Positions 4,158 to 52,434 of a stretch of DNA of 64,000 bases are shown here, piece by piece. Numbering within the stretch: position 1 is the stretch's first letter; every line of letters begins with the position of its first letter. The stretch comes from a phage. Both the position numbers and the translations under genes were made by a program. The notes beneath the pieces were generated by a model, which was not told the DNA's origin, did no database searches, and was given only the letters and a program-made list of their open reading frames with translations. The stretch is taken from assembly GCA_024613925.1 (NCBI GenBank), contig GCA_024613925.1_4713.1. One strand, 5' to 3'.

Positions 4158-4799
4158 TTATTCAACAAACCCCGCATTCAACAGATTGTCGTAAACACGA
4201 TTAGCGACATCAACAGGAGAATGTGTGTTACTGGTATCTATACACAACGTTTTCGCGTCGCCGAGATAGTCCATAAAATCCATGTAACGATAACGTCGTT
4301 TATTGAATGTCGCTTCATCGATGTTATCAAACATCTGATGTTTAGCGTGACGAAGACGGAACCGTCTTAAATACGTAGGATAGTCAATATCCAGATAAAC
4401 ATAGTAAGACGGCATGATAATAGACGGTAAGTTCGGCAACAACGCGTCAAACAACTTAACGTTGGCATCATTAACCTGATAAACATACGTCGAAGCAATC
4501 GAACGATCGCTAAGCACGGTCTTCCCTTCGTTAAGGGCTGGATGAATCACCTTGTTGAAGAGATGATTGCGTTGCGACATCATCGCCAATAGTTCGGTTT
4601 CTGGATCGAATCTGTTCGTTGGCGTCTGATCTTCCAGGATAAGTTTACGAATGGCTTCTCCGTAGAGCGTACCACCAGGCTCACGTACGACGCAGACGTT
4701 GTTTAAACGACTATGTAAAGACGAGATAACCGAACTCTTTCCTGAATAATCCAGGCCTTCAATAACGATATATTTATTACGAGACATTCCCCGCTCCAA
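4158..4799 (-). CDS. tmk: thymidylate kinase (dTMP kinase)
   Basis: P-loop IVIEGLDYSGKSS near the N-terminus and DR(S/Y) motif LSDRSIASTYVYQ; 213 aa, typical length. Confidence 0.8.
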   Translation of the reverse strand: MERGMSRNKYIVIEGLDYSGKSSVISSLHSRLNNVCVVREPGGTLYGEAIRKLILEDQTPTNRFDPETELLAMMSQRNHLFNKVIHPALNEGKTVLSDRSIASTYVYQVNDANVKLFDALLPNLPSIIMPSYYVYLDIDYPTYLRRFRLRHAKHQMFDNIDEATFNKRRYRYMDFMDYLGDAKTLCIDTSNTHSPVDVANRVYDNLLNAGFVE

Positions 4800-4803
4800 T
4801 TAA

Positions 4804-6081
4804 CTATTTCGTTTTTGCCGTCAGCGGCTGCGATACCGTAATCTCCACCCGATCGACATCGGTACGTTTAACGATGATAAGGCTACGTTCATCACCGAAT
4901 GGTGCTGCTACCTTACAAGCCTCTTTAAGATTTTCGAGAATCATGCCGTGGGGTTCAAACACCGCAAAACCGGAACTAGCGTCGATTCTTATTAGACTTA
5001 CACGCACATTGTTTACGGTAATGGTGTCATCCGTCTTGAACCCACAGCAGGAGGGTAGACGGAACTGACCATTAACGCAATTAGCTAAGTATGCTTCACC
5101 GCCGAACATTTCTATTAACGTCACCGGTTTAAATGTTTTCTCTGGGAAAGCACTATTAAGGGTATCGTTTCCATTCACGAACCAGATCGTTACTTTATCT
5201 TCGGAATACACCAGCCGGTACGGTTGGGTTGCGGACGCTTGCGCTTTATGCTGGTTAAATAACTTTGATTTTGTCGCAATCGCAGCACGACCTTCGGCGT
5301 CGAAGTACAGAACTTCATATCCGACACATCCGATAAACACGCGACGGTTATTAAGTTCCGGAATTCTGACTAATAATGCTTCACCGTTGTATCCAGTAGG
5401 AACAATACCACGTAGGATGATAGATTCATTGTTCAATACCGAATTTTTCATGGTGATGCTTCGCATTATCGCTGGCGTCACTATTTTATCTTCGACAGGT
5501 TCAAGCTGCTCCGCTGTTACAGTCATGGATCTGTCTTCGTTTTCAACCGACCGATTAAAGACTATTTTATTAAGACAAACAATCGGTAGAATCCGGTCTA
5601 CACACACGGTCTCATCGAAATGTGCAGGAAAGCGAAAAATATACGGAACAAAAACATCAATATCGTCGGTTGCTTTTTCAAGCATATTAGCATATTCAAC
5701 TGCTTTAGAACGACCGTTGAGAAGAATAACCGCATAGATAACACTATCTTCCAACCATGCGCGGGTCGTACGCCCGATAATACGATTGGTGTCTATTTCA
5801 GCGCGCTGAGACTCCGGCGACCACTTTACTGAGTTGACACCATCTACAACCACGTCGGCACCATCATCACACAAACTTCGTATGAACCGACTGACGGTCG
5901 CTGCATCGATCTGAATCCCAGCAACCTCAATTTTCATCAATGGGATAACAAACTCATTATTACCGCACTTCTTTGCTCCGCGAATAATAGGAGTACTCTT
6001 CTTGTTTTCACCCGACCCCCAGATAACTTTAGTCATTTTCTGTTTCCTTCTGAGTTTTGTACTAAGCTCTGACGACATCAT
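4804..6081 (-). CDS. hypothetical protein
   Basis: 425-aa ORF co-oriented and tightly packed between tmk and the RuvC-like gene; no phosphoesterase, ligase or kinase motif recognised. Confidence 0.5.
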   Translation of the reverse strand: MMSSELSTKLRRKQKMTKVIWGSGENKKSTPIIRGAKKCGNNEFVIPLMKIEVAGIQIDAATVSRFIRSLCDDGADVVVDGVNSVKWSPESQRAEIDTNRIIGRTTRAWLEDSVIYAVILLNGRSKAVEYANMLEKATDDIDVFVPYIFRFPAHFDETVCVDRILPIVCLNKIVFNRSVENEDRSMTVTAEQLEPVEDKIVTPAIMRSITMKNSVLNNESIILRGIVPTGYNGEALLVRIPELNNRRVFIGCVGYEVLYFDAEGRAAIATKSKLFNQHKAQASATQPYRLVYSEDKVTIWFVNGNDTLNSAFPEKTFKPVTLIEMFGGEAYLANCVNGQFRLPSCCGFKTDDTITVNNVRVSLIRIDASSGFAVFEPHGMILENLKEACKVAAPFGDERSLIIVKRTDVDRVEITVSQPLTAKTK

Positions 6082-6719
6082 CGACGTTTCGTACCGACCT
6101 TCCCGTTTCGATGGTCATCAAGAATACGCCATTCTTCGAACAGGAGTTCAGCAGCGAAATAACCTACGGCGATGCTGTCTATCGCATGCTCATCAAGATT
6201 CGCTAACACAACACCGTTCTTGGGTGTGATGTTCATGAGGTTCAATACTTTCTGGCGAACATCGTCCTTACCAACACGGGACGTCATAATCCCAACAGCG
6301 CGTTTTGCGCTTCGGTTATCAACCCCTAAGAAAGACACCGTAGGGTCAAAATCGATAACCGTTGTCTGAATCGCTGAAAACAGCTCGCTGAGCGCCATAC
6401 CGCTTTGCTTGAAACGACCGATAAACGGTGTTTCACAAGCGACCGCTTGCGGTTGGTACTCTTGCAATAACGATGTCAGCGAACGACGGTGTTCTTGGAT
6501 ACGTGCGGCACGATTACCGTAGCCAAGCGCAATATCGCCATCAGGATCATATCGGCGTGAGGCGTGCCATGTCCCCGCATACAGCAGTTCAATATCTTCG
6601 ACACGCACGTCCAAACGTAGTAACGACGCACCGAGCGTATCGGTGCCAGGGTCGATTGCCAGAATATCGTAAGCGTATTCTGGTGGGATCATGGTGTTAC
6701 AACAGCCTCTACTGACCAT
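6078..6719 (-). CDS. RuvC-like Holliday junction resolvase
   Basis: ILAIDPGTDTLGASLL (RuvC N-terminal Asp motif), internal ACETPF, C-terminal DEHAIDSIAVGYF (D-x-x-D-A-L-A-I-A pattern); likely true start at MIPPEY (about 6692), which makes an ATGA overlap with the upstream gene. Confidence 0.65.
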   Translation of the reverse strand: MVSRGCCNTMIPPEYAYDILAIDPGTDTLGASLLRLDVRVEDIELLYAGTWHASRRYDPDGDIALGYGNRAARIQEHRRSLTSLLQEYQPQAVACETPFIGRFKQSGMALSELFSAIQTTVIDFDPTVSFLGVDNRSAKRAVGIMTSRVGKDDVRQKVLNLMNITPKNGVVLANLDEHAIDSIAVGYFAAELLFEEWRILDDHRNGKVGTKRR

Positions 6720-7507
6720 GGGAAGGTTTTCGCAACAACACCCTCCAGGAAGCGTTCAACTTCCGATTGCTCATACACCGAAAGCTTTTCAAACGGTGTT
6801 TGGTCTTCGGTTAAACCTACCGCATGAATAGGACCCAGGTCTTTAACCAGGGTAACTTCGCCTTTAACGCCTTCGCGTTTAACGATGATCGCATGATCGT
6901 TAACCTTGGGATCATACAACACACGCATCATGGTTACCGCGTCATCCGGTTCATAACCGAAATCGATCGCAACGCGAGCACTCGTCCCTTCTTCATCCAA
7001 GAGCTTGCTTAGCGCTTTACAGCGATCTTCAATCCAATCCAACGCAACCACGGTTTCTTGGCGTAGCTGAACCTCAACTTCTTTTCCTTGTTCATCGATA
7101 CGTTTTACGGTAACGAAATCATGCAATAAACGATCCGGAAGGAGAGAAGCGATAAGCTCAACGTTGGGTTCAGGTTTTTCGTTTTCCAGAATGATGGTCG
7201 CTTGTGCATCCAGATGTTCTTTAAAACGGATGTAACGTGTTAATCGCAGAACCTCGTCTTGAGATTTTGCGTCTTCGGGAATAATCTCCGTCATGACGTT
7301 ATAGATCTTTTCAGCGAACGTCGGAATTACGGTGATTGTAATTCGTGCCGGTGTACCACGCTCCTGGTACTCATCGGCTAACTTCTTCGCCATCCCGTTA
7401 AAGTAGGTCTGGAGAAACGGTTGCTGTGTTAAAAACATTTTCTCCAGATCGGAATAGCGATGCTTGCGTGCATGGCCTAGCTTCTTCATGGGCTTTTTCA
7501 TCAACAT
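6689..7507 (-). CDS. hypothetical protein
   Basis: 272-aa ORF between the SbcC-like and RuvC-like genes; no Mre11/SbcD phosphoesterase motifs seen. Confidence 0.5.
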   Translation of the reverse strand: MLMKKPMKKLGHARKHRYSDLEKMFLTQQPFLQTYFNGMAKKLADEYQERGTPARITITVIPTFAEKIYNVMTEIIPEDAKSQDEVLRLTRYIRFKEHLDAQATIILENEKPEPNVELIASLLPDRLLHDFVTVKRIDEQGKEVEVQLRQETVVALDWIEDRCKALSKLLDEEGTSARVAIDFGYEPDDAVTMMRVLYDPKVNDHAIIVKREGVKGEVTLVKDLGPIHAVGLTEDQTPFEKLSVYEQSEVERFLEGVVAKTFPWSVEAVVTP

Positions 7508-7522
7508 AAATCCTTATTTGTC

Positions 7523-10042
7523 TTAAATAATCGTGACGTGTTCGTTATACGTTTCAGGGAGGATGATGTTCGTTTTATCAAGAACCATACACTCGGCTTT
7601 ACGGAATGATGCATGGTTGATCACATAGTGGCTGATGAACCACACTTGGCTTACGCGGTGGCCATCAACCAGACGACGAACAAAATCCATGGCATTAGAT
7701 TGGTGCTGGGGATCAAATGTTGATGCGAATTCATCTAACATCAACGGATAATCCGTGAACCCTTTGTAGTGCATCATCGCGATGATGAACGCGATGTTGA
7801 TAATTTCCTTTTGTCCCTTACTCCCACAAACAATATCTTTTCGCGGTGTCGGATACTTCTCAGTTAAAAGCGGAAAACGATAGTTCAATCCTTGCGCGTC
7901 GATAGCACACGGGAGTATCTGAAGTTGGTATTCCCAAATACTCGCAATGATACCGTTCATGTACTCAACGAACGCGTTGATGGGACCCGCAATTGTTTCG
8001 GCAATCAGTCCGTTAGATGGACTTAACTCATCCAGAACAAGTTGTGCATAACCGAGTTGTTCTTCCACCTCTTTTTGTGTCGTTTCCAGCTGAGCCAGAA
8101 GCTGTTGGTCGGTTTTAGCTTCTTGTAACTGCTGTTCGACATGGCTTATTCGGCGAACCGTATCAGACATCGCGGCACGTAACGATTTCGTGTAGAGGTG
8201 TTGCAAGTACTCTAACCACAGTTGGGTTAACGCTTTATCGCTGTTATCAGAACGCACTTGATCTTCCATAATCGCCGTAATGGTTTCTAGTCTACCTTCC
8301 GTAGCTGTAATGGCTTGTGTTAATCGCTCAACGGTCATTAACAACTCTGTCCTGTTCTTATAAAGCAATTCTCGGCGTTGCTGTAACGGTTCAACATCAA
8401 CCGCTTGTACACGTTCGAGCATGCCTTGAAGATGCTTCCGTTCTTGTTCGGCTTGTGTGTAACGCGCAAGTTTCTCAAACGCAAGCAACCAATCGTTAAT
8501 GATTCCAATGCTGCGGAATCCTAAACCGTTTTTACGTCCTTCTTCCAGCAGATTATCCCACATGGGTTTAATGGCGTAATAATCCTTCGTCCAACGTGTT
8601 AACTGACGATGCTGTTCCATCCAGAGCGTATAGCGCTGAACCTTCTCGCTAAGCTCGGCTAACGATTTCTCTTGTTCTTCAACCCAAGCACGGCCTTTCT
8701 GAATGCGTTGTTCAATACCCGCTTTGCTGGTCTTTTCTGTTTCACCAACATGAAAGCGATAGTTGCATTTTGGACAGCTGGTCTGGGGTTGATGATTCAG
8801 GTGGTCGAGATGCGCTTCCAAATCAGCTAACGCATGTTTCGCGTTACGCAAACGCATTCTTGCCGCCTCTTCCTCCTTGATGTAAGCTTCAGCATCGTAA
8901 ACATGATAGGTGTTGTCGGTATCAATCCATTCTTGGAGTAATTCCGTTAATGGAGCCTGAACTTGCGTGAGCTGTTGTAAACAAACCGCAGCGTCCAGAT
9001 TCATTGTTAAAAGCTCACCTGGATGATCTTGCTGAAGCTGTTCGTCCAAACAAGCAAGGCGGGCTTTAATCTGATCAATATCACCTTCTCCAGACTGTTT
9101 CAACTGGTCAAGGATATTATCGATACCCAACAGCTCATCAACCTGACTTTCGAGTTTTGCATTCGCATTCGCGAGTTGCTCTCTTAGTTCAGCCAGATTC
9201 TGCTGTTCTTGTTGCGATGTTCCTCCTTGGTAACGAACAACTGCACGTAGAAGCTCACGATTAAAATGATGGGCACGTTGTGCGGATTCCAGAAGCTGTC
9301 GTTGATCAACATCGCTATCGAATAACGGCAATCCCATCATCGCTTCGAGTGCTGAGCGTTGCTGCTTTAACTCTGCTTCTAATCCCTGGTGGTCGGTGCC
9401 GGTGTATTTCGCTTCAATGCGCTGTGATGTTTCAACCAACTTATTCAGTGTATGCTCATTCACCGCTTTCAGTGAACGTACTTGTTGCTTAACCACCTGA
9501 AACAACTCAAGCGCATAATCGACGTTAACCGGACATATCTGCGTTAATCGTTCGCGTCGTTTCATCGGACCCATTTCGGTGAACTGGTAAGCTGTTTCGT
9601 AACCTAACAACAAACGAATAGTGTCGTCATTAAGCTCGAAATGTTCCTCGATTAGTTTCCACTGGGCTGGTTGTGTACCACCACCATTCAGGTTCTCGCT
9701 GTCGTTAACGTAGAACTCATGCTTAAACCCTTTTTCTAAACGACTGATAAGACGGTATTGCTTATTACGGTGTTCGCAGCGGTACTCGTAATACCCGTCT
9801 TTATCAAAATCGGCACGCTCAGGAACGGTCGGATACAGCAAAGGCAATAGACTACTCTTACCGGAACCATTACTGCCTAAAATGAGTTGTACGGGATTAT
9901 CTGGCCGGATGACCAGCTCCCGAATCATCCCGGTATCAAAACGATTGAATCCACGTAAGTGGAGATAGGTGCATCGCATGCTATGATAATCCTTCTTCGA
10001 TACCTTCTGAACCCGTGGTTCAGAATGCGAAGCTGAAGCCAT
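7523..10042 (-). CDS. SbcC/Rad50-like SMC-family ATPase
   Basis: N-terminal Walker A LILGSNGSGKSSLL, long coiled-coil region with central CPKC zinc-hook-like CxxC, C-terminal signature-like CGSKGQKE, Walker B LMLDEF and H-loop ISH; likely true start at MRCTYLHLRGF (about 9979). Confidence 0.7.
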   Translation of the reverse strand: MASASHSEPRVQKVSKKDYHSMRCTYLHLRGFNRFDTGMIRELVIRPDNPVQLILGSNGSGKSSLLPLLYPTVPERADFDKDGYYEYRCEHRNKQYRLISRLEKGFKHEFYVNDSENLNGGGTQPAQWKLIEEHFELNDDTIRLLLGYETAYQFTEMGPMKRRERLTQICPVNVDYALELFQVVKQQVRSLKAVNEHTLNKLVETSQRIEAKYTGTDHQGLEAELKQQRSALEAMMGLPLFDSDVDQRQLLESAQRAHHFNRELLRAVVRYQGGTSQQEQQNLAELREQLANANAKLESQVDELLGIDNILDQLKQSGEGDIDQIKARLACLDEQLQQDHPGELLTMNLDAAVCLQQLTQVQAPLTELLQEWIDTDNTYHVYDAEAYIKEEEAARMRLRNAKHALADLEAHLDHLNHQPQTSCPKCNYRFHVGETEKTSKAGIEQRIQKGRAWVEEQEKSLAELSEKVQRYTLWMEQHRQLTRWTKDYYAIKPMWDNLLEEGRKNGLGFRSIGIINDWLLAFEKLARYTQAEQERKHLQGMLERVQAVDVEPLQQRRELLYKNRTELLMTVERLTQAITATEGRLETITAIMEDQVRSDNSDKALTQLWLEYLQHLYTKSLRAAMSDTVRRISHVEQQLQEAKTDQQLLAQLETTQKEVEEQLGYAQLVLDELSPSNGLIAETIAGPINAFVEYMNGIIASIWEYQLQILPCAIDAQGLNYRFPLLTEKYPTPRKDIVCGSKGQKEIINIAFIIAMMHYKGFTDYPLMLDEFASTFDPQHQSNAMDFVRRLVDGHRVSQVWFISHYVINHASFRKAECMVLDKTNIILPETYNEHVTII

Positions 10043-10093: not shown

Positions 10094-11182
10094 ATGAGCG
10101 ACCTGGCAACAGACAATCGCACAAAAGGGAGTCAGCTAGCTCCAGACAACAACGTAAGCGTTTTCCGTATCTATGCCTTGGGTACTGTTGCTGCCGACTT
10201 TTCCAATAAAAGTCTGGAGGAAGATCCTAACCAGGCGCTGGAGGTCTTTCTTGATGAGATGATGTCAGGCGCTGATGGGAAAGTTGAAGCGGCGGGAAGC
10301 GTGAAAGAAGTCAGTGCAACAGACGCTCAAGGGAACAGCTATACGGCGAAAGCGGCAACAACAACCAGCGTACAGTGTTACTGGTTACCCTTCGGCAGTA
10401 ACCGGATGACAGCACCTAACTTGAGGAAAGGTCAGCGCGTGGTGGTTTGGCGAACCGCGGATGAAGAACAACTCTACTGGCAGCCCAAAGGAGGGGATAG
10501 TGAGCTGATGACCATGGAATCGGTTATCCTCACCGTCAGCGCACGTCCTAGCGCCAAGAAGGACCGTAAATCGATTTCAACGGAAGACTGCTATTACTTA
10601 ATGGTTGATACCTTCCTCAAGAAAGCGGTTATCGGCACCAGCGCACAGCTTGGTGAAGTTACCCAAGTCTACATGGAACTTAATCTGGACGAGGGTTACC
10701 TACAGGTTGCGGACAGCGTCCATCAAAACCTGTTGTTGCTCCATTTTGTCGAACATATGCTGCGTTATCAAAACCAGGACGACAGCATCATCGACGTGAC
10801 AAAAAAGAACATCACATTCCAGTGCGAGGATACGCTCAAAGCAATTGCTAAGAACGATATCCGAATGAAAGCAAAAAACATTTATACCGAATGTGAGAAC
10901 TTCGAGCGTACCAGCAAAACAGAAAGCGTTACGAGTCAGAATGTTTCTTTGAAGTGTGACCGTTACACCGCGCAAGTATCAGGACAGACCACGTTCAAAT
11001 GTCCTAATACGGTATTCACTGGAGCTGTAAGCTTCACAGGTGAAGACGGGAACACGATGACGTTGAATGGGAACTTCATACACATCGCAGGCTCTTGGCG
11101 TTCACCAACCGGAACAAACGTATACACCCACGATCACGGCGGTGTAGATCGTGGCAGCGGTCGTACAGACCCGTTCCAATAA
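10094..11182 (+). CDS. hypothetical protein (possibly virion-associated)
   Basis: 362-aa ORF with AGGAG 8 nt upstream of ATG; followed by terminator 11203..11254. Confidence 0.5.
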   Translation: MSDLATDNRTKGSQLAPDNNVSVFRIYALGTVAADFSNKSLEEDPNQALEVFLDEMMSGADGKVEAAGSVKEVSATDAQGNSYTAKAATTTSVQCYWLPFGSNRMTAPNLRKGQRVVVWRTADEEQLYWQPKGGDSELMTMESVILTVSARPSAKKDRKSISTEDCYYLMVDTFLKKAVIGTSAQLGEVTQVYMELNLDEGYLQVADSVHQNLLLLHFVEHMLRYQNQDDSIIDVTKKNITFQCEDTLKAIAKNDIRMKAKNIYTECENFERTSKTESVTSQNVSLKCDRYTAQVSGQTTFKCPNTVFTGAVSFTGEDGNTMTLNGNFIHIAGSWRSPTGTNVYTHDHGGVDRGSGRTDPFQ

Positions 11183-13909: not shown

Positions 13910-14263
13910 TTAAGGTTTAGGTTCCGTTTTGTGTTGTGCGAGTAGTGTGTTGATCTGCTCCCGTTGTTCTTTTAAGCATGCAGGAAGCTGGTCTTCCCGT
14001 ACCGTTCCGATTTCCAACGTGATGTACCAGCGTTGTTCGGAAGCCTGCCATTGAAAACTGCTCTGTAACCGCAGGATGTTAGGATCACGTACCTTGTTTG
14101 CGCTGTAGCGGTTGAACCAATCCAGGTAAGCGGCTTTTCCTTCATCATCGGCAACGTAACGCTGCACGCTGTTCTTGCCTTTGTTCTCGTATCCTGTTGT
14201 ACGTATCATGCGAACGTTTCTCCTGTAACGTGTTGTGGATGGCGTAGCATGGTAGCATCCCAT
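13910..14263 (-). CDS. hypothetical protein (small, early-type cassette)
   Basis: 117-aa ORF; true start probably internal (MIRTTGYENKG) just after the stop of 14206..14988. Confidence 0.4.
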   Translation of the reverse strand: MGCYHATPSTTRYRRNVRMIRTTGYENKGKNSVQRYVADDEGKAAYLDWFNRYSANKVRDPNILRLQSSFQWQASEQRWYITLEIGTVREDQLPACLKEQREQINTLLAQHKTEPKP

Positions 14264-14988
14264 TGTACGATCCGGCTCCGGCTTACCCGCATCATGATGG
14301 ATTCATCGTCAAGCCCTGGTTGTGCAACCGGCAACCAACGTTCGTTAAGCACCTTCGCTTCAACGCGTTTCTTGCGGGGATTGTAACGCACCTCGCTGAC
14401 CCAAGCAAATCCAAGTGGATGCACAACCCGTGGATAATACATGCGAAGCAATTGATGCATCCGATCCGTTGCCTCCAAGCTCGCATCCGCCAGGTAAGGT
14501 TTCACCATGGTAAGCTTTTTGGTGTAATACGTTCCAACGGTATGGTTACGCCAACTTGGCAAGGCATGATCCCCTTCTCTCAGTTTGCTATCCGGGTTCA
14601 TCGGCCAGACCTGCTGTTTACCGGCCAGCATCGCGTACTGCCGATCAACGCAACGAACCTGATCGGCGAACAATGGATCCAGAACATCATCCACCGCACC
14701 CTTATTGCGATAACCGTGATGTACCACCAACCTGCTTGCGCTCATCGATGCGGGATGCTGGCTCTTATGCGCATACAGCCCTCCGTCACCGCGAGCGTCG
14801 TAAAGATAACCGCATGCGCCACGCCATATCACCTTGCCTACGGTTCTCTCGTTTTCAAGCAGCATCGTCGGCCCATCAAGCAAATTGGTGAACCACTGCA
14901 CCTTCACGCATTCCGCTTGGACATGCTCGGGTAATGCCTGATACTCTTTTTGGGTGTATAAGGTATCAAAAATGATTTCATCGTTCAT
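14206..14988 (-). CDS. hypothetical protein (first gene of early-type cassette)
   Basis: 260-aa ORF; promoter-like motif copy B about 85 nt upstream; the fully overlapping plus ORF 14263..14934 looks like its antisense shadow. Confidence 0.5.
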   Translation of the reverse strand: MNDEIIFDTLYTQKEYQALPEHVQAECVKVQWFTNLLDGPTMLLENERTVGKVIWRGACGYLYDARGDGGLYAHKSQHPASMSASRLVVHHGYRNKGAVDDVLDPLFADQVRCVDRQYAMLAGKQQVWPMNPDSKLREGDHALPSWRNHTVGTYYTKKLTMVKPYLADASLEATDRMHQLLRMYYPRVVHPLGFAWVSEVRYNPRKKRVEAKVLNERWLPVAQPGLDDESIMMRVSRSRIVQWDATMLRHPQHVTGETFA

Positions 14989-20525: not shown

Positions 20526-23120
20526 TTATAACGTGACTGTACCTAATTTGGTTGTCTTATTGAGATTAATGACAGAGATCTGGGTATCGCTGGTCGTAAT
20601 CGTTCCGATATTAACGCGCTGTCCTTTATCATCCTCTTGCTTATGGATGGTTAACTCCAGCTCTAGCTGGTCACCGTTAGGAACAACGGAAACGTACCAT
20701 GTTTTATTACCTGGTGAGCTATTATAGTTTTTTAGGTTATAATGGCCTTTAGGTAAGGTCATGGCCTTACCGGCAAACAAGCAAGTGATGTCTTCGTTGA
20801 TGTAGATATCGTAACCGGAAGCAGCAACGACCGTAGAAACCATGTAGACATGTTTGACGGTACCTGCGAGGTATTCGGCTACGCTTGGCCCATATGCTCT
20901 GAATACCTGTCCGCCATTGGATAAACGGTACGCTTCCCCAAGGTCAACGTACCCCAGACCCCATACCGGATGGACGTTGTAACGACGTCCGCTGCTGGCC
21001 AAATACTCATAAAGCTCATCTACCGATAACCCAACCCACGCACCACTGGCGTTCTTAGCACCACGGAATTGAAAATCGTTTGCGTTTCCTGGAGTAGCAA
21101 CGCGCACGGACATCGCCCCGGCGATTAACCAGCCATCAGCGCATTTACGATACCCTAATGGTCCCCACGCCCCCAGAGTGTTATCAATGTTATTGATTTG
21201 GTCCCGAGGCGTGTAAGTTACCGTTGTGACGACCCCCGTTACGGTAATGTTCCCTTCCCGAGCGCTAGTCGTTACTTCAGACGTCATGATAGCCGCCTTC
21301 CTGGAGACAGGATCGTACACCGATATGAACATCAAGCAGGGGGCCCCTGTGGACGCTGGAGGAACCACGATAGAGCCGCGTATAACGGAGTATCTCTCAA
21401 GCTTCGGCGACGTGTAGGTATCCCAACAAAGTTTGGCCGCTCTGTCGAGTTCTGCCTGCGTGATGCTTATCGATGCCCCCTTTAAGGCTAACGTATCAGG
21501 GTCGACCTCAACCCTGCTGCTTAATCTCCCTTCCTGTAACCAGCTACCAGTCACTATCGTCTGGTCGTCGCTCATGTGAATTGTCGCGAAACGTTCGCTC
21601 ACTGAACCGCCTACGTGGACGCGACTGGTTGGCGGGAATCCCGTCACATCGACCACGCTGTTCTTATAGCGATAACTCAAATCCCAATCAGTGGTTATTA
21701 ACCGCTTTTCGAAATTGCTCTGACCCCCTGGGATGCGGGATAAGACATAGACCTTGTTCTTCGCCGTGAAGCCAACGAAGCCGTGTGGACCACAGGACCC
21801 AACAACGCGGTCCATGATGTTAATCCAGCCCCCCACCTCGTACGCGGATATTGGGGTGAGTTTCGCAAGTTCGTCGAAGACATTACCAGCGTAGTCACCA
21901 ATGCGATACGATCGAACCATCGGCGAGGCCAGGTTATCATTCACACAGCTGGTAACCAGACCGTCCTCGCGAATGACCATGTTCCCGGTAAGGTTGCCCC
22001 CACCCCATGCCCAGAATCCGTCTTTATAATCACGGTCACGAGTTGACATCGTACAAGGGCCACGAAAGGACACCGAACCATCGGAGTTCACTTGTAATGA
22101 CGGCGTTCCAGCATTGGGACTTAATGTCCATTGCTTCGTATCCAGGTTCAAATCGACGTACCAGATCGTTGTCCCCTGATCGGCGATATTCGCGGTACTG
22201 TTAGTGTACCATGCCGTCGTACAGTAGATTCGCGCAATGTTACCTCTTACAACAGCGTAATTTCTAACACCCGCACGAATAGGGATAAGCGTCGTTAATT
22301 GACTAGGGTACGCTGTATGGTTTAACACTTCCCAGAAAAGAATATGGTCGAGGTTAGTTTTCGTCGTTCCCTCAAAAATCTTTCCACTAAACCCGGTTTC
22401 TTTGGTGAACTGTACAGCCGCACCATTTTTAATGTCCGATAACATACAGGTATGTACATCGAGTCCGTTTTTCCCTTCATGCGCCCACCAGACTAACAGG
22501 TACACTTTGTTTTTGTAGACGAACGTACTACAGCGCGCCATGCTGTCGGTAATACCCTCTACCGACCCGGTACACATGGCGGCGACATGCTTCTCTACGT
22601 TGAATGTGCCGTTAGTCAGAACGATGTATGGCTGTGTGTTCTCGTCGTTTTCGTCCATCGCGACACCCATCATCACACCGTGGTTATGACACCAGACCGA
22701 TTGTGGGATTTTAGGTAGTGCTGTAGGGTTGTACTGGCGACTGGTACCTATGGCGGTATCGAGCAGCCCTTCACCATTGTTTTTACAGATAGCGTAATAC
22801 ACCCCGTTTTTCATGCTGTTGGATGCAGAGCGAAGGATGGAAACACTCCCGTCTGCTTCCTGACAGATTCCGTAGGTACGACGTTCGGTCATGGCTATCG
22901 CGCCATCAGCTGACCCTTCGATGGCGAGAGGGAAGTAACTTTGATCGCCAATTTGTTCGATATCGGTTACGTCAATATCAATGTACTTTTCCATCTCGGT
23001 GTTGAACTCTGCAGTGCTGTACGCGCCGAGATCGCCAGCCTTTAACCCTGTTGGATTGCTTCGACTAGCGATACGTTCGGTAACGCTGGTCACCAGTTCG
23101 CTAAATTTTTTCATTGCCAT
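20526..23120 (-). CDS. large tailspike-like or fibre-associated protein
   Basis: 864-aa ORF embedded between two fibre genes; Gly/Ser/Thr/Asn-rich composition typical of receptor-binding proteins; no specific catalytic motif recognised. Confidence 0.5.
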   Translation of the reverse strand: MAMKKFSELVTSVTERIASRSNPTGLKAGDLGAYSTAEFNTEMEKYIDIDVTDIEQIGDQSYFPLAIEGSADGAIAMTERRTYGICQEADGSVSILRSASNSMKNGVYYAICKNNGEGLLDTAIGTSRQYNPTALPKIPQSVWCHNHGVMMGVAMDENDENTQPYIVLTNGTFNVEKHVAAMCTGSVEGITDSMARCSTFVYKNKVYLLVWWAHEGKNGLDVHTCMLSDIKNGAAVQFTKETGFSGKIFEGTTKTNLDHILFWEVLNHTAYPSQLTTLIPIRAGVRNYAVVRGNIARIYCTTAWYTNSTANIADQGTTIWYVDLNLDTKQWTLSPNAGTPSLQVNSDGSVSFRGPCTMSTRDRDYKDGFWAWGGGNLTGNMVIREDGLVTSCVNDNLASPMVRSYRIGDYAGNVFDELAKLTPISAYEVGGWINIMDRVVGSCGPHGFVGFTAKNKVYVLSRIPGGQSNFEKRLITTDWDLSYRYKNSVVDVTGFPPTSRVHVGGSVSERFATIHMSDDQTIVTGSWLQEGRLSSRVEVDPDTLALKGASISITQAELDRAAKLCWDTYTSPKLERYSVIRGSIVVPPASTGAPCLMFISVYDPVSRKAAIMTSEVTTSAREGNITVTGVVTTVTYTPRDQINNIDNTLGAWGPLGYRKCADGWLIAGAMSVRVATPGNANDFQFRGAKNASGAWVGLSVDELYEYLASSGRRYNVHPVWGLGYVDLGEAYRLSNGGQVFRAYGPSVAEYLAGTVKHVYMVSTVVAASGYDIYINEDITCLFAGKAMTLPKGHYNLKNYNSSPGNKTWYVSVVPNGDQLELELTIHKQEDDKGQRVNIGTITTSDTQISVINLNKTTKLGTVTL

Positions 23121-49834: not shown

Positions 49835-50695
49835 TTAGGATATACGGTGCATCGTCGGTGCGATTGGTCGTTGACCAAGGTAGAATGTATATCTCGGACG
49901 ATTTTTCGGTGCCTGGTTCGGTTGAGGATTCTTCGAATCGATAGCTAACACGTAGTACTGAAGTGTGGGGTTGAGTGTCGTCAGATAGTTTCTGATGAAC
50001 TCCTCGTTTAAACTTTCAGTCGGGGTTAGTATGTGCCCGTTGATTGTAACGACGGTACCATCGGAACGTATTTCACGAACAATGCACCAAGCCCCCGCAC
50101 CAACATCGGTAGGAATAGTCGTGCTGGGAGTAATGGTTAGATATTTATCGAAGAATTCGCAACAAAGAGGATGCATGTAGACCGTTACGGTATCATCTCC
50201 TGGCGAGGTTCTCTCTTTTGTTACAGGATCCTTCGTCGGTACAAATGTGTTAATTTTGGCTACCTTATCAGCATCTTCGTTCGCTTCGATATAAATCTCT
50301 GCTTTACCATGTACGCTCTGAGCTATACGACGTAACTGTTCGTATGTTTTCGGTGAGGTTAGCTGTACCCGACTGAGCAGCTCATCGTACCAAGCTTCGA
50401 AGGTGCTTGTTGGTATCTTAACGTATGCCTTATTTCCGGTTTCATTTTCATCCCGGAAGATAATCGCAACGGTATCAGGCTCATCAAGAGAATCCAGGTA
50501 AACAATGTGTTCGACCAACGCAGAAAACGTTTTACGTCCGGTTCCTCCATAGTACGGGTTTGCTGAATGAACCAGCCGCCAGTTACATGAAGTTTGGATA
50601 TGATCGAAGGCGTTGATCATGTTTTTACTGTAACGAAAAATTTCAGTAAAATATTCTTTACGTTCTTTACTAAGACGTTTGTATATCTTGGTCAT
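49835..50695 (-). CDS. paralog family B member
   Basis: 286 aa; C-terminal half (YMHPLCCEFFDKYLTI ... GAGAWCIVREIRSDGTVVTINGH ... LNEEFI) matches 50749..51549. Confidence 0.5.
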   Translation of the reverse strand: MTKIYKRLSKERKEYFTEIFRYSKNMINAFDHIQTSCNWRLVHSANPYYGGTGRKTFSALVEHIVYLDSLDEPDTVAIIFRDENETGNKAYVKIPTSTFEAWYDELLSRVQLTSPKTYEQLRRIAQSVHGKAEIYIEANEDADKVAKINTFVPTKDPVTKERTSPGDDTVTVYMHPLCCEFFDKYLTITPSTTIPTDVGAGAWCIVREIRSDGTVVTINGHILTPTESLNEEFIRNYLTTLNPTLQYYVLAIDSKNPQPNQAPKNRPRYTFYLGQRPIAPTMHRIS

Positions 50696-50748
50696 TTTTG
50701 TAGCTCCTTGATTAAAGTAAGGATGGATACGATTATTTATTATCGCTT

Positions 50749-51549
50749 TTAGTTTTTACCATTCCCCCAGCAGGGTTCTTCGTAAAAATGGTGCGGATAG
50801 CGATAATGAGAATTATTGGGTCTTCCTGTCGTTTCTTTCTGTGAGTCGACGACTAACGCGTAAAATAATTGGTGCTTGTCCATCATCGAAAAGTAAGAGG
50901 CAAGCAGTTTTTCGTTTAACGCGTCGCATGGTCGACAGGTACGACCACAAAGCGTTACGATACGGCCGTCAGGATAAACTTCACGGATCGTTCGCCATTC
51001 ACCGATACCAACCGGCGATGGTGCTGATGTGCCGCCCGCTATCGTTAAATATCGGTCGTACGTAGTACGGCATTCGGGATGAACGTAAATTGGCTGGGTA
51101 TTAGTACTGTCGTTTTCGGTTTGATGTTTACTCACGTATACCTCAAGGTAGATCGTTGGTAATCCGATTAGAACGCCGGTATCACGACGTTTTTTGGTAA
51201 TCCGAGGACGGATACTATCGAGCACGCTTTCCAGTTTTTCTGCGACTTCGTCAGCCGGTAATATATACCAGTATTGTGGTTCTGGGTCATCACCATGACT
51301 GAATAAGATACGACAGTCGGTGCTATTATTTTCTTCTACTTCAGGCGGGAAGATGATGGTGTGAACCGTATGACGTTCTGCGATATAAAATCCTTCGGGT
51401 CCCTCAGTTTTGGTAAGTGTAAAGGACCAGGGTGAACAATCTTCAGGTGATAAGCCTGCTAGGAAAAAGTTCGTCCGGATTGGCGCGTCCCATTTCGTGA
51501 TCATGTTAGCGTGACCAATAACACCTAACTTTTGATAAATATCTGTCAT
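50749..51549 (-). CDS. paralog family B member
   Basis: start set at ATG of MTDIYQKLGV (51549) because the track ORF (to 51675) runs through promoter copy D and into the terminator hairpin; YVHPECRTTYDRYLTI ... GIGEWRTIREVYPDGRIVTLCG ... LNEKLL. Confidence 0.5.
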   Translation of the reverse strand: MTDIYQKLGVIGHANMITKWDAPIRTNFFLAGLSPEDCSPWSFTLTKTEGPEGFYIAERHTVHTIIFPPEVEENNSTDCRILFSHGDDPEPQYWYILPADEVAEKLESVLDSIRPRITKKRRDTGVLIGLPTIYLEVYVSKHQTENDSTNTQPIYVHPECRTTYDRYLTIAGGTSAPSPVGIGEWRTIREVYPDGRIVTLCGRTCRPCDALNEKLLASYFSMMDKHQLFYALVVDSQKETTGRPNNSHYRYPHHFYEEPCWGNGKN

Positions 51550-51604
51550 GATTGTATCCTCGATTATTAAGAGAAATTTACAATGATAACAGTAACCGCT
51601 GTTA

Positions 51605-51629
51605 TCACCTAGGTAATGTAGTCGTGAAA
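51605..51629 (-). promoter_or_regulatory. conserved promoter-like motif, copy D (minus reading TTTCACGACTACATTACCTAGGTGA)
   Basis: near-identical to copies A, B and C; about 64 nt upstream of the ATG at 51549. Confidence 0.5.
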
Positions 51630-51664
51630 TAAACTGGGGTAATGCGAAATAAGACAGCATAGAA

Positions 51665-51696
51665 CCCTCTCCCAACCCGTAAGGGAAGGGAGAGGG
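51665..51696 (-). terminator. intrinsic terminator, CCTCC/GGAGG-arm hairpin family
   Basis: ccctctccc-aacccgtaagggaa-gggagaggg; 6 nt after the stop of 51703..52434; minus strand continues TTCTATGCTGTCTTATTTCG. Confidence 0.65.
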
Positions 51697-51702
51697 AATA
51701 TA

Positions 51703-52434
51703 TCACCAATGATCGAAGGAACCAGGAGTGTTACGAACGATCTCAACTTGGAAGGTTATTGGTACTGATGGCAATGAAACATATTCGCGTTGCGATAGCG
51801 GGACGTTGTCTTCTCGCTCATCGATGCGAGCAGAACCTGTCAGAAATTGGAACATAGCGACTTGAAGCTCATCGGTGAAACGGAGGTACTCACCGATGTG
51901 TGGTGTTGCATCATATCGAATAAGTACGTTGCCAAACCGTCGTGCGATATTTGGAGTATCTGTGAACGAAACAGGGAAATCCAAAGTCATTCCCATCGTT
52001 TCACCTGGCTTCATTTTCCGAATCGACGCAATTGGCACGTCGAAGATATTCCATTCTTCTTTCATCGTGTCTGGAAACACACCGCGATACAAGATGGTCT
52101 TTTGATGACGATGAACGGGTTGTAAACGGTCAACCAATATTTTCAAAGGTTTAAGTTCTTCAGCCAATTCATAATCTGCTTGGATGTTCCACTTTGCCGC
52201 AAGTTCCATTAGGTTGGGATACGCGCTATATTTATTGACGATAGCCCAGTTAACATTACGCAAATCAATAGGAAGGAATTTGATAATTTCCTTGTTGAAT
52301 ATCCATTGGTTTAATTTCTTAATCTCCGAAAGCATGATGTACTCACTACAGCTAAACGGTTGGACGAACGGTGTTGTCTTTTTCTGGTGCAAGCCATAAC
52401 GTGACCGTACCATGGCATGTCCACTGTGGTTCAC
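51703..52434 (-). CDS. hypothetical protein
   Basis: 243-aa ORF; true start probably internal (MLSEIKKLNQ, about 52335), which removes the overlap with the upstream gene. Confidence 0.45.
   Translation of the reverse strand: MNHSGHAMVRSRYGLHQKKTTPFVQPFSCSEYIMLSEIKKLNQWIFNKEIIKFLPIDLRNVNWAIVNKYSAYPNLMELAAKWNIQADYELAEELKPLKILVDRLQPVHRHQKTILYRGVFPDTMKEEWNIFDVPIASIRKMKPGETMGMTLDFPVSFTDTPNIARRFGNVLIRYDATPHIGEYLRFTDELQVAMFQFLTGSARIDEREDNVPLSQREYVSLPSVPITFQVEIVRNTPGSFDHW

Follow-up and report, generated by a model that had tools for sequence, protein, structure and literature searches.

A divergent SbcC/Rad50-like ATPase of a Goslar-like jumbo phage and its probable, distantly encoded SbcD/Mre11 partner

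Genes 46 and 47 of phage T4 are clustered, with only 46.1 and 46.2 between them. Their products, gp46 and gp47, are essential for recombination-dependent replication (PMC5105663). By contrast, the SbcC and SbcD genes of SPN3US, phiKZ and relatives were described by Thomas et al. (2016) as "drastically separated", with SPN3US gp186 named SbcC and gp27 named SbcD (PMC5105663). [quoted passage not shown] Amber mutants showed that SPN3US gp186 is essential (PMC5105663), phiKZ orf165 tolerates no transposon insertions (PMC12676376), and an antisense-knockdown table lists orf165 and "nuclease 065" among core-genome genes (PMC12571901). Here we analyze an SbcC/Rad50-like ATPase encoded in a 64,000-nucleotide stretch of phage DNA (GenBank assembly GCA_024613925.1, contig GCA_024613925.1_4713.1), hereafter the window. 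A preliminary description of positions 4158-10042, made from the window alone, had presented this ATPase as lacking a recognisable Mre11/SbcD partner, and had proposed that the nuclease is either encoded elsewhere or replaced by a non-canonical partner next door.

The SbcC/Rad50-like ATPase and the distant SbcD/Mre11-like gene

The 839-aa protein very probably provides the Rad50/SbcC subunit of a DNA-end-processing complex of Mre11-Rad50 type that the phage itself encodes, with an orthologue of gp178 of Escherichia phage vB_EcoM_Goslar (NC_048170/MK327938, 237,307 bp), encoded at a distance and outside the window, as its nuclease subunit. There would be no nuclease gene beside sbcC because the Mre11/SbcD partner is encoded far off in the genome. 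Goslar is the closest sequenced relative, and its DNA is 94.8% identical to the window over positions 4158-10042. The proteins encoded around sbcC are 98.5-99.5% identical to their Goslar counterparts, and the SbcC-like protein is 98.9% identical to Goslar gp012. [quoted passage not shown]

Several lines of evidence place the ATPase in the Rad50/SbcC family. The invariance of its motifs was assessed in an alignment of four chimallivirus proteins (Goslar-like, PhiPA3, Noxifer, and LucasX), and the motif coordinates were verified by translation (Table 1). The CPKC motif lies near the midpoint of a ~470-residue linker that joins the two ATPase halves. This is where one would expect the zinc hook of a Rad50, at the tip of its antiparallel coiled coil, although both the coiled coil and zinc binding are putative here. 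A profile built from four chimallivirus SbcC homologues has Pyrococcus furiosus Rad50 as its best PDB match (3qku, E = 3.8e-7), and NCBIfam Rad50_Sulf aligns to the hook region (residues 390-504, E = 2.2e-5), below the cut-off of that model. The score for Pfam SMC_N is 38.2 bits against a cut-off of 40 bits. A single-sequence PDB search with the SbcC-like protein gave no match, and the family is therefore highly divergent. Walker A, the C-terminal motifs, a linker with a central CxxC, and profile similarity to Rad50 are all present, as befits a Rad50/SbcC family member, and a cognate SbcD is probably encoded in the same genome, as it is in Goslar. On sequence grounds, the protein is an orthologue of Goslar gp012, phiKZ gp165, and SPN3US gp186. 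Translation likely starts at M22 (window position 9979), giving a predicted protein of 818 aa.

The whole-genome search for an Mre11-like gene that the preliminary description had proposed was run on Goslar and found gp178 (record positions 162,609-163,751, minus strand, 380 aa), outside the window. The candidates, gp176-gp179, were chosen by synteny with the phiKZ ORF62-67 region. In a motif scan of the genome, gp178 is the sole Goslar ORF with an ordered set of phosphoesterase motifs. Both GenBank and RefSeq call it a "hypothetical protein", and no SbcD or Mre11 is named in the Goslar annotation. Over residues 7-368 it matches phrog_100, "SbcD-like subunit of palindrome specific endonuclease" (E = 1.8e-40), and it is 32% identical to phiKZ gp065, which is SbcD-like according to RefSeq (E = 1e-51). 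Its motifs read D20-I-H22, G56-D-V-F-D60, T-N-L-H100-D101, H172, and G-H210-I-H212. When five homologues (gp178, Noxifer, SPN3US, AgentSmith, and Deimos-Minion) were aligned, D20, H22, G56, D57, D60, E95, G96, T97, H100, D101, H172, H210, and H212 proved invariant, so that the family has Mre11/SbcD motifs I (D-x-H), II (GD-x-x-D), IV (H), and V (GH-x-H). The top 14 PDB matches of the family profile are all Mre11/SbcD; Thermotoga maritima Mre11 matches at 7.9e-8 (3qg5_C) and 8.2e-8 (2q8u), and Escherichia coli SbcD at 1.2e-3 (6s6v). A second Goslar-like genome, from IMG/VR, carries an SbcD copy that is 99% identical. Judged by these motifs and profile matches, gp178 is a true but divergent Mre11/SbcD orthologue, the counterpart of phiKZ gp065 and SPN3US gp27, and its annotation should become SbcD/Mre11-like.

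Homologues of SbcC were counted in 289 phage records and those of SbcD in 315, and the two occupy nearly the same set of phage groups. Counted by host genus, the numbers of SbcC and SbcD homologues are 81 and 81 for Pseudomonas, 62 and 62 for Erwinia, 24 and 24 for Salmonella, 22 and 23 for Vibrio, and 21 and 21 for Serratia. Wherever both positions are listed, the two genes lie at least 40 kb apart, the distances ranging from tens to hundreds of kb. For example, sbcC and sbcD are at 153.7 and 46.9 kb in Noxifer, 134.8 and 257.7 kb in HHBS36_1, 173.4 and 130.9 kb in AgentSmith, and 7.5 and 162.6 kb in Goslar, where the distance between them is ~153 kb. Thus, the first option of the preliminary description, a nuclease encoded elsewhere, is borne out by Goslar and agrees with what was reported for SPN3US, phiKZ, and relatives (PMC5105663). 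Its statement that the ATPase has no Mre11/SbcD partner holds for the window, but a partner is present in Goslar and in the second Goslar-like genome.

Some observations weigh against assigning gp178 and its orthologue as the partner. The Pfam Metallophos match of gp178 is weak (E = 0.04), and single-sequence searches of PDB and NCBIfam with gp178 found nothing. Motif III of the family reads E95-G96-T97-x-x-H100-D101; the His-Asp pair is retained and falls opposite NHDW in the alignment with T. maritima Mre11, whereas conservation does not extend to the Asn of the canonical GNH(D/E). Apart from this variant, the motifs of both subunits are intact. The remaining genome of the phage lies outside the window, and we infer its sbcD from Goslar and from one further Goslar-like genome. 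Finally, the physical complex, the biochemical activity, and the pathway role of the chimallivirus pair are all presumed from the better-known systems.

By analogy with T4 gp46/47, SbcCD, and cellular Mre11-Rad50, a mechanism can be proposed. The SbcC and SbcD products would have to assemble in trans, since their genes sit at separate loci, and would form an M2R2-type complex. On ATP binding, the Rad50 heads, their coiled coils linked through the zinc hook, would engage and clamp DNA ends, and the Mre11 dimer would then resect the ends and open hairpins. The resected ends could then serve as substrates for a phage UvsX-type recombinase in recombination-dependent replication and repair. The RuvC-like enzyme encoded nearby would resolve branched DNA before packaging, and the thymidylate kinase (Tmk) would contribute to the supply of dTDP.

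In every chimallivirus examined, sbcD directly precedes a gene for a conserved ~265-278-aa protein (phiKZ gp066/Goslar gp177, phrog_3229), and the stop and start codons at this junction often overlap or abut. The gp066 family has an invariant LxESHTGxxK motif and no relative in PDB. In phiKZ and Goslar, chmC follows the gp066-like gene downstream of sbcD. The gp066-like protein is a candidate accessory factor of SbcCD.

The gene cluster and the neighbours of sbcC

The co-oriented grouping of the Rad50-like ATPase with a RuvC-like resolvase and a thymidylate kinase, as given in the preliminary description, was recovered in full, with all five ORFs present on the minus strand at the same coordinates (Table 1). 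The 425-aa ORF had also been treated as a neighbour of sbcC; it is not adjacent, since the 272-aa ORF and the RuvC gene lie between. ATGA stop/start overlaps join the 272-aa and RuvC ORFs (6689-6692) and the RuvC and 425-aa longest ORFs (6078-6081). For several of the genes, translation probably begins inside the longest ORF. The probable start of RuvC is the ATG that overlaps the stop of the 272-aa gene, which would give 204 aa. NCBIfam ruvC matches of this protein are weak, and its candidate acidic residues, picked by inspection only, are D23 (AIDPG), E96 (ACETP), and D176/D181 (DEHAIDS).

Table 1. Genes and ATPase motifs at the sbcC locus; coordinates are those of the window, and residue numbers are those of the SbcC/Rad50-like protein.
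Feature	Coordinates	Strand	Evidence
Thymidylate kinase (Tmk; Goslar gp008)	4158..4799	-	Pfam PF02223, E = 4.9e-28; phrog_761, E = 5.7e-36
425-aa two-part protein (Goslar gp009 family)	4804..6081	-	No match in Pfam or PHROG
RuvC-like Holliday-junction resolvase (Goslar gp010)	6078..6719	-	Pfam PF02075, 26.6 bits (cut-off 22.2); phrog_159, E = 2.6e-21
272-aa protein (Goslar gp011), Goslar clade only	6689..7507	-	No credible family match
SbcC/Rad50-like ABC ATPase (Goslar gp012), longest ORF 839 aa	7523..10042	-	phrog_77, E = 5e-74; Pfam SMC_N, E = 1.4e-9
H-loop ISH, residues 803-805	7628..7636	-	I803, S804, H805 invariant
Walker B and D-loop DYPLMLDEFASTFD, residues 764-777	7712..7753	-	D770, E771, F776, D777 invariant
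Signature-like SKGQ, residues 741-744	7811..7822	-	S741, Q744 invariant; variant of canonical ABC signature
CPKC, residues 423-426, putative Rad50 zinc hook	8765..8776	-	C423, P424, C426 invariant
Walker A/P-loop GSNGSGKSS, residues 56-64	9851..9877	-	Invariant in the four-phage alignment
Baseplate assembly protein (phiKZ gp164), divergent neighbour of sbcC	10094..11182	+	phrog_3216, E = 1.9e-61

The baseplate assembly gene marks the orthologous sbcC locus and is outside the repair function. PhiPA3 and Noxifer share the divergent baseplate/sbcC arrangement, and LucasX has an unannotated divergent gene in that place. On the 3' side of sbcC, the genes differ in PhiPA3, Noxifer, and LucasX. A related lineage preserves the order SbcC, 275-aa protein, RuvC, 163-aa protein, Tmk, although its homologue of the 272-aa protein is only 44% identical. 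From these gene orders, the clustering of SbcC, the 272-aa protein, RuvC, the 425-aa protein, and Tmk is specific to the Goslar clade. A recombination-dependent replication or repair module, as had been suggested for the cluster, is plausible for SbcC and RuvC, but the clustering itself is a trait of this clade.

The 272-aa protein is highly restricted. A search of 5.8 billion proteins recovered four homologues, and a profile search of 1.84 billion representatives likewise recovered four, all in Goslar-like phages; tblastn matched no other phage record in the collection searched. In the sampled Goslar-like phages it is well conserved, forming one 98%-identity cluster of 302 member sequences. 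The family profile found nothing in PDB, and the single-sequence AlphaFold2 model is unusable (pLDDT 44). A Pfam Ad_Cy_reg match was treated as spurious, being sub-threshold and present in three of five members only. A paralogous relationship with phiKZ gp066/Goslar gp177 was rejected (hhalign probability 0.1%). The protein thus has no recognisable fold or family, and a clade-specific accessory role is compatible with its gene context.

The 425-aa protein is of a different kind. Its start is likely M16 (window position 6036), giving a predicted 410 aa; this ATG lies 45 nt inside the longest ORF, has a Shine-Dalgarno-like sequence upstream, and agrees with database homologues. The protein is only 58% identical to the Goslar copy, although it is encoded between genes that are 99% identical. 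The N-terminal ~165 aa share 23% identity with Goslar gp009, and the C-terminal ~245 aa share 84.5%. The family comprises 181 database clusters. They come from Goslar-like contigs, some of which belong to assemblies of E. coli, Salmonella, and Shigella, and they show at least three allele types of the N-domain. In the related lineage, the equivalent position is taken by the 163-aa ORF, a homologue of the N-domain, and an exact-match search of IMG/VR for the allele in the window found nothing. Such a pattern of hypervariability suggests an interface of conflict, shaped by diversifying selection or by the swapping of domains.

Confidence in an AlphaFold2 model of the 425-aa family is limited to residues ~20-158 (pLDDT 65-86). 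The modeled N-domain resembles the T4 gp21 prohead protease (5jbl, E = 1.2e-4, TMt 0.54) and also matches ~140-aa proteins of the large phages Miami, Phabio, and fHe-Yen9-04. No Ser or His in it is invariant, so that it is probably an inactive protease-like domain, a tentative side observation from the model. PDB matches of the family model to LetB/YebT are meaningless (rmsd >20 A).

Could a neighbour supply the nuclease? The proposal that the 272-aa or the 425-aa ORF is a non-canonical nuclease replacing Mre11 draws on position, as both ORFs are co-oriented with sbcC and had no assigned function. Neither has a Metallophos match at E ≤ 0.1 or any hit in NCBIfam or PADLOC, and no ORF of at least 150 aa in the window carries the ordered phosphoesterase motif set. 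The lack of phosphoesterase motifs reported in the preliminary description is therefore confirmed; calcineurin-like motifs, the observation that would have pointed to a nuclease next door, were looked for in both neighbours and did not appear. Against a chimallivirus SbcD profile, hhalign gave probabilities of 0.13% for the 272-aa and 0.21% for the 425-aa protein, and neither resembles any nuclease family. The 272-aa protein is confined to the Goslar clade, whereas SbcC occurs across chimalliviruses; the 425-aa protein is hypervariable, is replaced by one of 163 aa in the related lineage, and has a prohead-protease-like fold, not a nuclease, as its one confidently modeled domain. With a canonical SbcD in nearly the same phage groups as SbcC, replacement by a neighbour is extremely unlikely, and this part of the preliminary description finds no support. 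We give as little credence to the idea that SbcC works with Goslar gp157 (record positions 140,999-141,556), a 185-aa metallophosphoesterase, in place of gp178. On generic phosphoesterase models gp157 does score better than gp178 (Metallophos_2, E = 3.3e-8; phrog_547 "phosphoesterase", E = 1.4e-30), but its length leaves no room for both an Mre11 nuclease domain and a capping domain, the PHROG family it matches is generic and not SbcD, and the SbcD PHROG, the Mre11/SbcD structures, and the SbcC-like distribution among phage groups all point to gp178.

The ATPase might also work with no nuclease at all, tethering or organising DNA in the phage nucleus in the manner of SMC/RecN proteins. Its great divergence, the lack of a PDB match for the single sequence, and an SMC_N score just below the gathering score would fit such a role, as would the RecN-like or RecF names of homologues in some records and a weak similarity to the SMC-like LmuB of PADLOC. 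Set against an invariant CPxC hook, best profile matches that point to Rad50, and a cognate Mre11/SbcD orthologue in nearly the same phage groups, this is very unlikely. Somewhat less remote, though still improbable, is that the 272-aa protein adds to the distant SbcD without replacing it. It would then be an accessory subunit or adaptor peculiar to the clade, serving either the Rad50/Mre11 complex or RuvC, and would resemble Nbs1/Xrs2, Sae2/CtIP, or the small T4 genes 46.1/46.2 in its role though not by descent. Its gene starts 15 nt past the sbcC stop and overlaps the RuvC start with its own stop; the order of SbcC, the 275-aa protein, and RuvC persists at only 44% identity; and the protein is conserved across the sampled Goslar-like phages, unlike the product of the hypervariable neighbouring gene. 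However, no homology between it and any family, structure, or nuclease could be detected, and since all other chimalliviruses have the same SbcC and SbcD but lack this protein, it cannot be a general requirement. Adjacency is in any case weak evidence in these phages, since functionally linked genes are typically scattered (PMC5105663). We regard it as similarly doubtful that the 272-aa protein is a new factor that couples Rad50/Mre11 processing to RuvC or targets the enzymes to the phage nucleus and that, separately, the protease-fold N-domain of the 425-aa protein is an interface of phage-host or phage-phage conflict. An SbcC subunit paired with the distant gp178 orthologue remains by far the preferred reading.

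The window and phage Goslar

In a per-gene comparison, the proteins of the window are mostly 97-100% identical to those of Goslar, and their order is unchanged. From this identity and shared order, the window corresponds to about the first 61 kb of a Goslar-like genome. Two minus-strand genes depart from their flanking genes, which are 90-100% identical to Goslar. The 260-aa protein encoded at 14206-14988 is 62% identical to its Goslar counterpart and has no family match, and the 864-aa protein encoded at 20526-23120 is 52% identical and matches phrog_3573. The latter may relate to host range, given that virion and tail-fibre-like genes adjoin it.

A further ~2.6 kb on the minus strand (49835-52434) has no counterpart in Goslar. 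Its three ORFs encode 286, 308, and 243 aa; no Goslar match exists for the first of them, and the other two match over their first 28-44 residues only. None has a Pfam match, and there is one marginal PHROG match among them. Relative to Goslar, this segment looks like an indel or an island of accessory genes.

Chimallivirus-type phages transcribe with their own RNA polymerases. Scans for sigma-70 promoters and terminators in the window showed no enrichment over shuffled sequence, and neither the Rfam nor the tRNA scan returned a match there.

Comparison with known SbcCD and Mre11-Rad50 systems

With gp178 as the probable partner, the apparent anomaly is removed: the Rad50-like ATPase would be one half of a conserved chimallivirus SbcCD and not an orphan. 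The split of the SbcC and SbcD genes was already known for phiKZ-related phages, and in that respect the finding is ordinary. It does underline that gene adjacency in chimalliviruses is a poor guide to partnership. It also flags the two neighbours, one conserved and clade-restricted and the other hypervariable and two-part, as candidates for clade-specific functions.

The likeness to cellular systems (E. coli SbcCD, T. maritima 3qg5, and P. furiosus 3qku) lies in the ATPase motifs, the CxxC hook, and phosphoesterase motifs I, II, IV, and V, and it is detectable only with profiles (E from 4e-7 to 8e-8). Goslar-type motif III lacks the canonical Asn, and the cellular genes form an operon (sbcDC), whereas those of Goslar are ~153 kb apart. 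With T4 gp46/gp47, the Goslar-like pair shares a phage-encoded Rad50-type ATPase and Mre11-type nuclease and the split ABC ATPase architecture; unlike T4 gp46, however, the Goslar-like SbcC is similarly long to that of SPN3US.

The closest counterparts are phiKZ gp165 and gp065 and SPN3US gp186 and gp27. These are orthologous to the Goslar-like proteins, with 24-28% identity over ~97% of SbcC and 32% for SbcD. Where Goslar-like phages have the 272-aa gene, RuvC, the hypervariable gene, and Tmk after sbcC, other chimalliviruses have unrelated genes. On the SbcD side, phiKZ resembles Goslar in carrying sbcD upstream of the gp066-like and chmC genes, and the sbcC and sbcD genes of phiKZ-related phages are split likewise.

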